From IMG/VR virus record IMGVR_UViG_2634166457_000020, positions 1 to 39,240 of that record: a DNA stretch of 39,240 bases; one strand, written 5' to 3'. Position numbers and translations under genes: made by a program. Source of the DNA: a virus. Lineage: Duplodnaviria; Heunggongvirae; Uroviricota; Caudoviricetes. Below the pieces are notes generated by a model. It saw only the letters and a list, made by a program, of their open reading frames with translations. It was not told where the DNA came from and did no database searches. Of the stretch, positions 6,429 to 9,824 are shown piece after piece (position 1 is the stretch's first letter; each line of letters starts with the position of its first letter).

Positions 6429-7013
6429 TTATTGTTTGTTTTTTTCGTTCTGGTTGATGACAAATTCAATGTAACTTTCGATCTTTGCTTTCTCGGTTTC
6501 GGGTAACAATGCGTAGCGCGAGCGATCATAGTTGATGGTCGCAGGGTCGTGCGGGTGAATCAGTAATTCATAGCCGTGACGCCCGAATGCGGATGCAACA
6601 TTCTCCAGGGTGGAAATGGAAACGCTGACCTCATTGTTTAACAGGCGGCTGATTGTCACCTGGGCGACGCCGGATGCGCGGTGAAGTTTTCCCTGAGTTG
6701 AAAGGTCGCGGCTTTCGCTCATCCAGCGTTCCAGGTTGTGAGCCGCCAGCTGACCAATGTCGCTTGGGCCGACAGGCTGAAAACCTTCCTGAGAAAGCGA
6801 GCGATCGATATCAAGCCAGTTACGGGGTTTATTGGCGGCAGCTTCAATTTTTCGCGCAACCTGGTCGCCGATAACCTTCTTGCCAAGAGCCCAGCGGTTT
6901 ACCAGATTTGCCTGAGTTCCAAGTTTTTCTGCCATCCGCGTCTGAACACCATTGAATTCACGGTCGATCAAGTCGTTGAGATTTTGCCTGCGGACGTCCT
7001 GGATACTTTTCAT
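6429..7013 (-). CDS. Phage repressor-like protein with two tandem XRE-type helix-turn-helix domains, 194 aa; no S24 peptidase domain
   Basis: HTH 1 TRMAEKLGTQANLVNRWALGKK; HTH 2 KLHRASGVAQVTISRLLNNEVSVSISTLENVASAFG; located between two operator clusters and divergent from a Cro-like gene. Confidence 0.65.
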   Translation of the reverse strand: MKSIQDVRRQNLNDLIDREFNGVQTRMAEKLGTQANLVNRWALGKKVIGDQVARKIEAAANKPRNWLDIDRSLSQEGFQPVGPSDIGQLAAHNLERWMSESRDLSTQGKLHRASGVAQVTISRLLNNEVSVSISTLENVASAFGRHGYELLIHPHDPATINYDRSRYALLPETEKAKIESYIEFVINQNEKNKQ

Positions 7014-7068
7014 TTTCTGGAAAATCGCCTCATATATGAATCAGTAGATGATTCAATTTAAAGCAATA

Positions 7069-7131
7069 TTACCCAACAGGTAAATGCACCCCATAGGTAA
7101 CTATCCTTGATTTTTGTTACCTTATGGGTGA
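7069..7131. promoter_or_regulatory. Rightward operator/promoter cluster (OR-like), three sites: TTACC-CAACA-GGTAA (7069-7083), GCACC-CCATA-GGTAA (7086-7100), TTACC-TTATG-GGTGA (7117-7131)
   Basis: Three adjacent 15-bp palindromic sites in the 154-bp divergent region between repressor start (7013) and Cro-like start (7168); candidate -35 TTGATT at 7105-7110. Confidence 0.65.
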
Positions 7132-7167
7132 ATATTTATTATCTGAAATAAATATCAGGCAATAGCT

Positions 7168-7398
7168 ATGAGCGATAACGGACATTTCGATTTCAAAAAG
7201 CACTGGCTTGCACTTACTCCGGATGAGCGTGAAGCCTTCGCACAGGAAGCCGGAACGACGAGTCACTATATCCAGACTCACTTAACAGGTAAGCGCAAAA
7301 TGCCAGGTAAGGTATTGATGAATGGGCTTTTTAAAGCCTGTAAAACAAGACAATGGCTGCGCTCAAAAGCAGAACTGGCATACTTCTTCTACTCATGA
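7168..7398 (+). CDS. Cro-like small DNA-binding regulator (YdaS-like), 76 aa
   Basis: Small protein divergent from the repressor with an HTH-like segment (EREAFAQEAGTTSHYIQTHLTGKRK). Confidence 0.55.
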   Translation: MSDNGHFDFKKHWLALTPDEREAFAQEAGTTSHYIQTHLTGKRKMPGKVLMNGLFKACKTRQWLRSKAELAYFFYS

Positions 7399-7420
7399 TA
7401 TCCAGCCACAACCCTCTGTA

Positions 7421-7442
7421 GACCGCCATCCGGCGGTCTTTT
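7421..7442 (+). terminator. Rho-independent terminator after Cro-like gene (GACCGCC-ATCC-GGCGGTC plus TTTT)
   Basis: 7-bp GC-rich stem followed by T-run. Confidence 0.6.
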
Positions 7443-7512
7443 CATATCTATTCGCACCTTAAAGGTAATAAAAAACCAAATCTGGTTGATCTTTTTTTTG
7501 TGTCAGCACAAA

Positions 7513-7749
7513 ATGACCGTAATCCCAATACTAATAACAGGGCTTACCATGGAAATCATTACACGTATTGATGCCGCAAAGCGCGGACTTAAACGCTACT
7601 ACACCGGAAAACCATGTAAGCACGGACATGACAGTGAACGCTGGGTTTACAACGGACACTGTGTTGAGTGCACCATGGAATCAAACCGTCGTATCAGGGC
7701 AGAGATTAAGCAGATCATGATTAATTCCTCCCCACAACATTCAAGCTGA
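7513..7749 (+). CDS. Small Cys/His-rich (zinc-finger-like) protein at the cII position; start uncertain (7486 TTG, 7513 ATG or 7549 ATG)
   Basis: Motif CKHGHDSERWVYNGHCVEC; preceded by a GCACC-TTAAA-GGTAA site at 7454-7468. Confidence 0.4.
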   Translation: MTVIPILITGLTMEIITRIDAAKRGLKRYYTGKPCKHGHDSERWVYNGHCVECTMESNRRIRAEIKQIMINSSPQHSS

Positions 7750-7764
7750 TAGCGGAGATTAATC

Positions 7765-8580
7765 ATGAGCAGACATGCAACAGATTGGGCCTGGGAGACA
7801 GATCCAGGTAGCTCGTCATTAAAGCTCATACTGCTCTCGATGGCTGACAGAGCCGATGAATATAACCTCTGCTACCCCAGCATAGAACGCCTCGTTAAAG
7901 ACACTTGCCTGAATAAAAAAACCGTGCAGGCCGGACTTATATCGCTCATGAAAATGGGGCTTATTTCAGATACCGGAGAGAGAAAGGGGGCGACGAAAAG
8001 AGTGCGGGTTTTCTCTCTTAATATAACCAAAAAAGGGAACATTAAAGGCAACCTGGAAGGGTGTAATGAACCCGAAAACGGTAATGTTCCCGAAAACGGG
8101 AATATACCCAAAAACGGGATGTTGAATGATCCCAAAAACGGGATGTTGAATGATCCCAAAAACGGGATCCAGAACCAGTCATATAACCAGTCATTTAACC
8201 AAGAGAGGGAGAGCAGGACAAAAAGCGGGGATTCTGTGCCTCATGACCCCGGCGCAAACAACGCCGTGATGAATAACTTTGTTCCTCCTGGTGGGCCAGG
8301 GCAATTAGGCAAATTTGTCATGCATGAACAATGGCAACCATCAGATGACTTTCTTCGGAAAAGCTCATTGCAGGGGATCTACCTGGACAGTCTGCCAACG
8401 GCACAGGAACTTGCAGAGTTCAGAATTTACTGGATGGCTGAGGGTAAGGCATACCATCAGGCACAGTGGGAGCAGAAGCTGGCAAGGAGGCTGCAGATTA
8501 GCAGACAGAAGCAATCAACATTACCTGATAACAACGTTCCGCACTGGAACAGCCCTGAAGCATGGGAGGATTTCTTGTGA
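7765..8580 (+). CDS. Replication initiator, lambda O-like, 271 aa, with repetitive NG-rich linker
   Basis: N-terminal winged-helix-like region, internal repetitive linker encoded by iterons, position immediately upstream of a lambda P homologue. Confidence 0.65.
   Translation: MSRHATDWAWETDPGSSSLKLILLSMADRADEYNLCYPSIERLVKDTCLNKKTVQAGLISLMKMGLISDTGERKGATKRVRVFSLNITKKGNIKGNLEGCNEPENGNVPENGNIPKNGMLNDPKNGMLNDPKNGIQNQSYNQSFNQERESRTKSGDSVPHDPGANNAVMNNFVPPGGPGQLGKFVMHEQWQPSDDFLRKSSLQGIYLDSLPTAQELAEFRIYWMAEGKAYHQAQWEQKLARRLQISRQKQSTLPDNNVPHWNSPEAWEDFL
8071..8196. repeat. Five direct iterons CCC(G/A)AAAACGG(G) at 8071, 8089, 8107, 8131, 8155 plus two AACCAGTCAT repeats; candidate origin of replication inside the O-like gene
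   Basis: Direct repeats at 18-24 bp spacing, including an exact 24-bp tandem duplication (8107-8130 / 8131-8154), followed by a moderately AT-rich segment. Confidence 0.55.
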
Positions 8581-9362
8581 ACAACGTTTTTACCGCGATA
8601 CAAAACCGTGACGGAGAAGCTCTTTCTCGTATGTCAGGTTATGAGCATCAGTACACCAACAATGACAACGTGGTGAACATGTCAGCAGAGAGGCTTGTTG
8701 ATGCCCTTTTCAAACAGTTGAAACAACTGTTTCCGGCGGCAGTGGTAACCAACCTGAAGACGCCAGAGCAGGAAGTTGCTGCAAAACAGCAGTGGATTGC
8801 TGCGTTTGCCGAAGGGGGGATCCGAACCCGTGAACAGGTTTCTGCTGGTATGCGCCACGCCCGCGCCAGTGAATCTCCGTTCTGGCCGTCGCCAGGGCAA
8901 TTTATCAAGTGGTGTAAAGACAGCAAGATGGTTCTTGGCGTCACCATTGACGATGTGATGGCGGAGTTTCACCGGTACAGCAAGGAAAAAAGTTTATATC
9001 CTGGTGGTCCCGAAAGATTCCCGTGGCGGCATCCGGTTATGTACTGGGTCGTATGTGATACCCGCCGTGCAATGTATCAGCGCCAGCTTAGCGAGATTGA
9101 GGTTGAGAAACACGCGCGCAGGCTGCTCGATGATTGGGCGAAAAAGGTGGCTTCCGGACAGCAGATACCCGATCCGGTGATCAGCATACAGGCAAAGCCA
9201 GAGCCCATGAGTACACCTCCGGACACAGGGATAGACGTTTACCATCCACAAGGGCGAAGTTTCGGGTGCATGCCTAACGCCGCCACCCTTAGGGGAATAA
9301 CACCGGCGCAGTGGCTGATGGAGGAATACAGGCGGGGAAAGGCGGTAGGATTTATCAAGTAA
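8562..9362 (+). CDS. Lambda P-like replication protein (helicase loader), about 262-266 aa; start uncertain (ATG 8562 or GTG 8577)
   Basis: Clear similarity to remembered lambda P core: QWIAAFAEGGIRTREQVSAGMRHARASESPFWPSPGQFIKWCKD vs lambda RRQWVLAFRENGITTMEQVNAGMRVARRQNRPFLPSPGQFVAWCRE. Confidence 0.8.
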   Translation: MGGFLVNNVFTAIQNRDGEALSRMSGYEHQYTNNDNVVNMSAERLVDALFKQLKQLFPAAVVTNLKTPEQEVAAKQQWIAAFAEGGIRTREQVSAGMRHARASESPFWPSPGQFIKWCKDSKMVLGVTIDDVMAEFHRYSKEKSLYPGGPERFPWRHPVMYWVVCDTRRAMYQRQLSEIEVEKHARRLLDDWAKKVASGQQIPDPVISIQAKPEPMSTPPDTGIDVYHPQGRSFGCMPNAATLRGITPAQWLMEEYRRGKAVGFIK

Positions 9363-9479
9363 TACCAGCGCGATAGCGCATTTTTTTACGTCTACATAAT
9401 TACCTGTTAGGTAATAAAATGTTCTAAAATCTATTGATTTCGTGTCTTATGTGGTTTTTAATTACCTCAGGGGTAAATC

Positions 9480-9824
9480 ATGAGAAAACAGATGCAGGCT
9501 CTTGGTCGACTCAAAACAGGACAGATGAACAAAACAGAATCTGCGTATTGCCAGCACCTTGAGCAGCGTAAACGTGCAGGGGAAATCGCCTGGTATCGAT
9601 TCGAGGGTATCAAGCTGCGGTTAGCTGATAACACGTTCTATACGCCCGATTTTGCTGTGATGCTCGCCACCGGCGAGATGGAACTGCACGAAGTGAAAGG
9701 TTTCTGGACCGACGACGCCAGGGTGAAAACCAAAGTCGCCGCAGATCAGTATCCGTTCCGAATCATCGGGGTAACGGTTAAACCAAAGAAAGCAGGTGGT
9801 GGCTGGAACATCGAAGAGTTCTGA
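9480..9824 (+). CDS. Hypothetical phage protein, possibly PD-(D/E)XK nuclease-like (DUF1064-like), 114 aa
   Basis: Motifs TPDF ... ELHEVKG suggest a D-(E)xK active site arrangement; low certainty. Confidence 0.45.
   Translation: MRKQMQALGRLKTGQMNKTESAYCQHLEQRKRAGEIAWYRFEGIKLRLADNTFYTPDFAVMLATGEMELHEVKGFWTDDARVKTKVAADQYPFRIIGVTVKPKKAGGGWNIEEF

Follow-up and report, generated by a model that had tools for sequence, protein, structure and literature searches.

We analyzed a 39,240-nucleotide stretch of viral DNA (IMG/VR record IMGVR_UViG_2634166457_000020; hereafter, the window), which represents a phiV10-like E. coli podovirus of the genus Uetakevirus, and we found that positions 8026–8231 very probably constitute the replication origin of this phage. 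The candidate origin is located within the linker-coding part of the replication initiator gene (7765–8580, plus strand; 271 amino acids) and consists of five good and two degenerate dyads of the form CCC-(A/T-rich N6)-GG(G), which sit between the regions coding for the HTH_36 and DnaT domains of the protein. This interpretation is based on the constraint acting on these repeats at the DNA level, their co-inheritance with the N-terminal domain (N-domain) of the initiator, their resemblance to the iterons of phage lambda and the presence of an adjacent gene encoding a P-type helicase loader. In addition, the array exceeds chance expectation and has no counterpart elsewhere in the window, and the initiator and the lambda-P loader lie downstream of a divergent repressor/cro-like gene pair. 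The original prediction, which proposed a probable origin made of iterons inside this gene, is strongly supported by these sequence comparisons.

The consensus CCCRAAAACGG, searched with at most one mismatch, presented only five matches in the 39,240 bases, all on the plus strand (8071, 8089, 8107, 8131, and 8155; array extent 8071–8165), and none of 100 dinucleotide-preserving shuffles reached this number. These matches correspond to the five direct repeats described in the original prediction. A looser dyad (CCCNWWWWNGG) was found 12 times in the window: 10 of the 12 matches fell within 8027–8166 and the other two were singletons. Using Tandem Repeats Finder, we identified an 18-bp unit (3.1 copies; 8063–8117), a 24-bp unit (2.6 copies on the plus strand with 100% identity; 8107–8168), which includes the conserved spacer GATGTTGAATGAT and matches the exact duplication reported earlier, and a 12-bp unit AACCAGTCATAT (2.4 copies; 8173–8201). 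These are the sole tandem arrays of the entire window.

The motif scan defined five iterons on the plus strand with a spacing of 18–24 bp: iteron 1 (CCCGAAAACGGT; 8071–8082), iteron 2 (TTCCCGAAAACGGGAA; 8087–8102), whose 6-bp arms flank AAAA in perfect dyad symmetry and which matches on both strands, iteron 3 (TACCCAAAAACGGGAT; 8105–8120), iteron 4 (GATCCCAAAAACGGGAT, with the dyad ATCCC-N6-GGGAT; 8129–8144), and iteron 5 (GATCCCAAAAACGGGAT; 8153–8168), the copy closest to the 12-bp repeats. In addition to the perfect dyad, the window contains three copies of the unit ATCCCAAAAACGGGAT. Two degenerate copies, also on the plus strand, lie outside this core: ACCAAAAAAGGGAA at 8026–8039 and ACAAAAAGCGGGGA at 8218–8231. 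Both are closer to the consensus in phiV10 (respectively, ACCAAAAACGGGAA and ACAAAAAACGGGGA). The repeats are in frame with the open reading frame (ORF) 7765–8580, and, as stated in the original prediction, they encode the linker of the protein, which reads ...EPENGNVPENGNIPKNGMLNDPKNGMLNDPKNGIQNQSYNQSFNQ... We also observed two minus-strand terminator-like matches at 8115–8158, which arise where neighboring iteron half-sites can pair (GGGAT...ATCCC) just ahead of the T-run of an A-tract; these were rejected as by-products of the dyads.

The constraint acting on the repeats was evaluated in a scan of one genome per species, which yielded 80 loci with 41–87% N-domain identity from Enterobacterales, Vibrio, Pseudoalteromonas, Marinomonas, Acinetobacter, Desulfovibrionaceae, Sphingomonadales, and Polaromonas. 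With the N-domain as query, a word-indexed protein search yielded little beyond fragments of close relatives. Across the 78 loci analyzed for dyad density, the dyad CCC-N6(A/T-rich)-GG was 17-fold denser within the 300 bp following the N-domain than elsewhere (respectively, 6.2 and 0.36 per kb). Codon usage follows the same DNA motif: proline is encoded by CCC in 140 of 163 P-x-x-G motifs (86%) and in 176 of 1008 cases (17%) elsewhere in the same genes (Fisher test; P ~ 1e-66), and glycine is encoded by GGG in 42% of these motifs against 21% (P ~ 2e-8), the codon and frame counts including related and tandemly duplicated copies. The middle pair of P-x-x-G varies among more than 35 different dipeptides. 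Moreover, the dyad motif is read in frames 0, 1, and 2 (respectively, 69, 23, and 5 cases), with more than one reading frame within a single gene in 16 of 35 loci (e.g., T-Q-K-R-D beside P-K-N-G), and inverted copies (CCGTTTTT...) are also present in homologous loci.

Arrays were found at the equivalent position in the phage homologs whose N-domains are 45–52% identical to that of the window. Edwardsiella phage GF-2 presents AATGATCCCAAAATTGGGATTTTG (24 bp, 2.8 copies), Vibrio phage Her presents CCGAAAACGGTACTTTGAATAGGC (24 bp, 4.6 copies) followed by AGAACCAGTCATT (2.5 copies), and the units of Acinetobacter phage AP22 are CCCAAAAACGGA, CCCATATACGGG, and CCCAAATTTGGG. The linker peptides vary across these phages (PKNG, PKIG, PIYG, PKFG) and the dyad CCC-(A/T)6-GGG is retained. 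Taken together, these sequence data indicate that the repeats are constrained as DNA and not as peptide. The TTGAAY spacer between iterons shows a comparable bias, with leucine encoded by TTG in 30 of 37 cases relative to a background of 17% (P = 3e-17). Because this spacer is kept along with its leucine codon bias, the whole 24-bp repeat, beyond the 12-bp dyad, may be the functional unit. The spacer is kept across lineages: it occurs at 8119–8130 and 8143–8154 of the window, and homologous spacers are found in GF-2 (locus L006) and in loci L007 and L091–L122. In five bacterial loci (L105, L121, L127, L146, and L166), we noted that the initiator frame ends soon after the iteron array (111–147 amino acids); these may be decayed prophages, frameshifts within the repeats or, for L105, the end of the fetched locus.

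The repeats were also found to travel with the N-domain when the rest of the initiator differs. In GF-2 (AP014629, 1501–2343), a window-type N-domain and its dyads are joined to a C-terminal domain (C-domain) that is 62% identical to residues 156–299 of lambda O (E = 2e-67), and the initiators of Her and AP22 have C-terminal parts of other kinds. Conversely, Salmonella phage SPN1S (JN391180), an epsilon15-like phage, possesses a DnaT-type C-domain as in the window with a different N-domain, and we detected no cluster of CCC-N6-GG dyads in SPN1S although its linker is equally long. Instead, SPN1S contains eight GTCCGC/GCGGAC sites, all within the initiator gene, a number reached by none of 200 shuffles. 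These sites form two clusters (1402–1453 and 1681–1721 of locus L010), each with two direct and two inverted copies, and they probably serve as iterons for the epsilon15-type N-domain. Among the N-domains related to that of the window, the largest clade, which includes Acinetobacter prophage loci, repeats GTCCCAAC(A/G)WT, and the window's own clade and the PPompW clade repeat CCCAAAAACGG. These sequence comparisons indicate that the iteron type is inherited with the N-domain independently of the C-domain, which is the classical lambdoid pattern. As a side observation, the DNA just 3' of the GF-2 repeats reads GAGAATTCTGACGAATCCTCAGAC, which is close to the palindrome located to the right of the AT-rich tract of lambda.

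The organization of the candidate origin closely parallels that of lambda ori. In both cases, the initiator gene itself harbors the iterons, where its DNA-binding N-terminal half meets its loader-binding C-terminal half, a P-family loader gene is found directly downstream, and the N-terminal half and the iterons are swapped as one module against differing C-terminal halves (PMC7466680). The annotated lambda iterons (J02459, 39034–39118) are ATCCCTCAAAACGAGGGA, ATCCCCTAAAACGAGGGA, ATCCCTCAAATTGGGGGA, and ATCCCTCAAAACAGGGGG, with starts 20, 24, and 23 bp apart, and the units of both phages are TCCC..AAAAC..GGGA dyads (ATCCCTCAAAACGAGGGA in lambda; ATCCCAAAAACGGGAT and TTCCCGAAAACGGGAA in the window). 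The arms of the dyad are 6 bp apart in the window, about 4 bp closer than in lambda (~9–10 bp). Lambda ori comprises four iterons and a strongly AT-rich tract midway along gene O; in the window, 12-bp tandem repeats of moderate A+T content take the place of that tract. Finally, lambda O matches Phage_rep_O (PF04492; E = 5.7e-36) and not HTH_36, whereas the N-domain of the window initiator matches HTH_36 only and its C-domain is DnaT-like. The number of iterons is known to vary among lambdoid phages, with four in lambda and six in the Shiga toxin (Stx) phages 933W and P27, and extra iterons matter for replication (PMC7466680). Relatives of the window likewise vary, with one to five copies of the 24-bp unit, but the Stx lambdoid phages rely on true initiators of the lambda-O family and on lambda-type iterons.

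Directly 3' of the last iteron, the window presents 12-bp AACCAGTCAT repeats, which the original prediction had correctly listed as following the array. They are more than trailing copies and belong to a second conserved element, with a period of 12 or 13 bp. Based on Tandem Repeats Finder and conservation, we delimited three tandem repeats (AGAACCAGTCAT / ATAACCAGTCAT / TTAACCAAGAGA; 8171–8206, plus strand) as a candidate element for DNA unwinding and helicase loading. The sequence ACCAGTCA recurs in loci of Superficieibacter, Phaseolibacter, Vibrio, and Pseudoalteromonas as well as in phage Her, with a 13-bp period in three of them, Vibrio and Pseudoalteromonas loci included, and since this period is 13 bp, successive copies fall in different reading frames. 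At least two RGAAYC motifs were found within 45 bp at this position in 66 of 83 loci, and nearly all of their spacings are of 12 bp (47 cases) or of 13 bp (43 cases). RGAAYC occurs at 6.8 per kb at the element relative to 0.79 per kb elsewhere. Many loci continue after these repeats with TAAAAATAAAAA or AAAGATCTAAA. In the window, the top strand is purine-rich here, as in lambda (0.65; ~4th percentile). We also observed a GATC (Dam) site where the last iteron meets the 12-mers (8164–8170; GGGATCCAG), and many relatives have AAAGATCTAAA just after the 12/13-mers (e.g., loci L134, L143, and L009); a link with methylation or SeqA is possible.

Short tandem repeats beside initiator sites are a hallmark of the unwinding elements of oriC, RK2, F, and lambda, of which a single strand is bound by winged-helix Rep proteins (PMC4081077). 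Because of this association, 8171–8206 is read here as the probable site of unwinding and helicase loading. The origins of iteron plasmids offer a parallel: in RK2 oriV/TrfA and F oriS/RepE, a winged-helix initiator acts on direct repeats that adjoin an unwinding element of 13-mers bound as single-stranded DNA (PMC4081077). These plasmid origins differ from the window in their intergenic iterons, AT-rich unwinding element and DnaA boxes, whereas the candidate origin of the window lies wholly within coding sequence, is not AT-rich and lacks a DnaA box in its vicinity. A more speculative proposal, which we consider possible although rather doubtful, is that the RGAAYCNNYCA repeats (in the window, three copies of AGAACCAGTCAT) could form an unwinding element that is defined by its sequence, is not AT-rich and is bound as single-stranded DNA by the initiator. 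The whole origin, unwinding element included, would then be a dual-coding part of an ORF that retains its DNA signals as the peptide frame drifts, and prophages from Enterobacterales to Acinetobacter and Alphaproteobacteria would have this design in common.

The number of repeats was also compared among related phages, as the original prediction had proposed. The sample consisted of ~85 close relatives and was treated as a population sample; an alignment-based scan of viral contigs gave only near-identical phiV10-like loci, which were used in the same way. The segment between fixed anchors ranges from 157 to 253 bp in these relatives, and its lengths differ by multiples of 6 bp. The 24-bp unit is present in one copy in ~10 loci, in two copies in ~65 loci and in three, four, or five copies in a few, the 18-bp unit reaches up to four copies and the 12-bp unit varies from one to three copies. 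For instance, BP9 is devoid of one 24-bp unit and phiV10 possesses a third 12-mer (one extra copy). The array is therefore dynamic, but the two-copy state of the window is the commonest and is shared with other phages, including phiV10. The exact duplication is thus not private to this genome, which contradicts the earlier suggestion of a recent repeat expansion. The 24-bp copies of GF-2 and Her are also perfectly identical within each array, which suggests ongoing homogenization or selection on the whole unit.

These observations can be assembled into a model of initiation. The five good and two degenerate dyads would be iterons bound by the initiator's own winged-helix N-domain, probably as dimers, and the bound initiator would form a complex similar to the 'O-some' of lambda. 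This complex would strain the adjacent 12-bp repeats at 8171–8206, where unwinding and loading would take place. By analogy with lambda O and P, the DnaT-like C-domain would recruit the P-type loader together with the host DnaB, and, given the single-stranded DNA-binding domain of DnaT, it may also hold the single strand.

Several observations weigh against the inference of an origin at 8026–8231. We did not detect any strongly AT-rich tract beside the iterons: the region 8160–8220 contains 55–60% A+T and ranks at about the 15th percentile for low duplex stability, and the AT-rich tract of lambda reaches 67–68% A+T in 60-bp windows. A scan for DnaA boxes across 7700–8600 identified a single site with one mismatch (8576–8584), and the total for the whole window was below chance. 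The comparison of the window N-domain profile with lambda O using hhalign gave a probability of 7.9%, i.e., no detectable homology, so that the analogy with lambda O is functional only. The 'O-like' label of the original prediction consequently holds in the sense that the gene would work like lambda O, but not as detectable homology of the DNA-binding half, which belongs to HTH_36 and not to Phage_rep_O. The P-values of the codon analyses also overstate independence, since the counts include related and duplicated copies; the frame changes and inversions are unaffected by this kinship. Finally, the GenBank entries of relatives contain no ori annotation, and our literature search found no experiment on binding or origin activity in this phage or its relatives. 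Nor did this search, in which the ZX5 paper was included, reveal an earlier account of the origin, although its coverage was incomplete and an earlier in silico mention is possible. The literature matches to the motif strings were unrelated PCR primers.

We considered several alternative explanations for the repeats. They could be initiator-binding sites with a mainly regulatory role (autoregulation, titration, handcuffing, or exclusion of related phages), with replication starting elsewhere. Plasmid iterons also serve in copy control, related phages are reported to be inhibited by cloned ori regions of lambda (PMC3349717), a variation of one to five copies would be tolerable for a tuning element, and no AT-rich tract adjoins the array. 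This scenario nevertheless appears unlikely: the 39-kb window contains no other repeat array that could act as an origin, the conserved 12/13-bp repeats right after the last iteron resemble an unwinding element, and the position and modular structure match lambda ori exactly. It is less probable still that the dyads bind a protein other than the initiator, such as a host factor or the phage repressor or Cro, even though several dimeric regulators could recognize a short dyad with an A-tract. Outside the array, the dyad occurs in the window only as two singletons and is missing from the intergenic region between the repressor and cro genes, and a role as repressor/Cro operator was rejected for this latter reason. 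The dyad also co-varies with the type of initiator N-domain across phages of the same or closely related hosts, and the breadth of its hosts, from Enterobacterales to Acinetobacter, Sphingomonadales, and Polaromonas, disfavors a host-specific factor.

Another hypothesis is that the repeats have no function as DNA and are a by-product of a slippage-prone, low-complexity linker (P-[KE]-N-G). The repeats are indeed in frame, all the length variants in the population are multiples of 6 bp and the encoded N/G/P-rich segment is predicted to be disordered. But a peptide-level origin does not account for the use of CCC for 86% of the prolines against a background of 17% while the middle residues vary widely, nor for a motif that is read as P-K-N-G and as Q-K-R in one gene (16 of 35 loci) and that also occurs in inverted copies. 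Furthermore, the repeats with a 13-bp period shift frame between copies, and the repeats are missing with the other type of N-domain despite an equally long linker. The frame and codon data largely refute this hypothesis, and we regard it as very improbable. The least plausible of the alternatives, with hardly any likelihood in our view, is that the repeats act as RNA, for example through hairpins of the early transcript that affect translation or stability. The RNA of 8020–8240 does fold better than shuffled sequences (z = −3.25), but any array of dyad repeats yields such a z-score, a Rfam scan of 7000–9600 gave no match and the predicted pairings join different repeat copies, whose number varies. 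Inverted copies would also put U-tracts in place of A-tracts, and co-variation with a DNA-binding domain is unexpected for an RNA element.

The predicted fold of the initiator's N-domain is a further point in favor of an origin at 8026–8231. The initiator gene is 96–99% identical to its homologs in PAS61, phiv142-3, and phiV10, and the ORF, Pfam, and PDB matches define a winged-helix N-domain, a linker encoded by the repeats and a DnaT-like C-domain. Pfam identified HTH_36 at amino acids 18–67 (E = 1.8e-10) and DnaT at amino acids 184–252 (E = 1.2e-15), and DnaT chains of the PDB match amino acids 180–265 (E ~ 1e-20) at DnaT residues 85–170. An AlphaFold2 model built with an alignment (predicted local distance difference test [pLDDT] of 81) places helices at residues 3–11, 17–29, 40–47, and 51–64, a beta hairpin at 67–85 and disorder from residue 90. 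On the basis of this model, the N-domain (amino acids 3–85; coding region 7771–8019, plus strand) is confidently predicted to be a winged helix, and it is the presumed reader of the iterons. Foldseek matched the model to generic winged-helix DNA binders with weak scores (best E = 4e-3) and to no Rep proteins specifically. A single-sequence AlphaFold2 model of the full-length initiator was discarded (pLDDT of 37).

In GenBank, relatives of this gene are labeled 'primosomal protein', 'replication initiation protein' or 'primosomal protein I / DnaT'. Since a winged-helix domain and a linker encoded by the iterons stand in place of the N-terminal half of DnaT, the DnaT label is misleading. E. coli DnaT (primosomal protein I) shares its single-stranded DNA-binding C-domain with the window initiator and possesses its own N-terminal half; the initiator does not present the full-length DnaT architecture, as only amino acids 180–265 match DnaT and its N-terminal half is HTH_36.

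The gene of the lambda-P-family helicase loader (8562–9362, plus strand; Phage_lambda_P PF06992, E = 1.5e-56) overlaps the end of the initiator gene. Upstream, we found the divergent repressor-like gene (6429–7013, minus strand) and the cro-like gene (7168–7398, plus strand). A candidate early rightward promoter lies between these two genes (7114–7142, plus strand; 9 of 12 consensus matches) and its transcript would cross the origin, but it is of low confidence since such matches are not above the chance count; indeed, the promoter and terminator scan yielded nothing above chance. Between the cro-like gene and the initiator, a 66-amino acid ORF (7549–7749, plus strand) presents the pattern C-x-H-G-H ... 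C-x2-C with no Pfam match. It is kept as a hypothetical protein in phiV10 and PAS61, and a hairpin terminator is found upstream (7420–7439).

Several database records deserve mention. The record of phage BP9 (PP488543; a 138-kb Vequintavirus, at 132–138 kb) and PP350014 (PH444; 115 kb, unannotated) both carry a phiV10-like early region that includes the candidate origin, and both records resemble chimeric assemblies or mixed lysates. In YDC107_2 (CP025713, 2736–2996), 1-base indels in the A-runs of the iterons split the initiator ORF in the annotation, and these indels are probably homopolymer sequencing errors.

An origin of the lambda style located inside the initiator gene is in itself textbook lambda biology (PMC7466680). 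What our analysis adds is the different family of the initiator domain, the defined iteron consensus, the conserved 12/13-bp companion element and clear evidence, throughout a broad prophage family, that DNA signals overlap with coding sequence. Our results provide a concrete and testable candidate origin for the phiV10/epsilon15-like phages (Uetakevirus), some of which are used as reporter phages for E. coli O157, and they correct the misleading 'primosomal protein DnaT' label of the Uetakevirus initiator. They also offer a clean natural case of DNA signals superimposed on a coding sequence, which is exposed by codon choice, frame shifts, and inversions. More generally, the winged-helix initiator domain and its CCC-N6-GG iterons form a mobile module that is widespread in the prophages of Proteobacteria, where it is combined with at least three kinds of C-domains.

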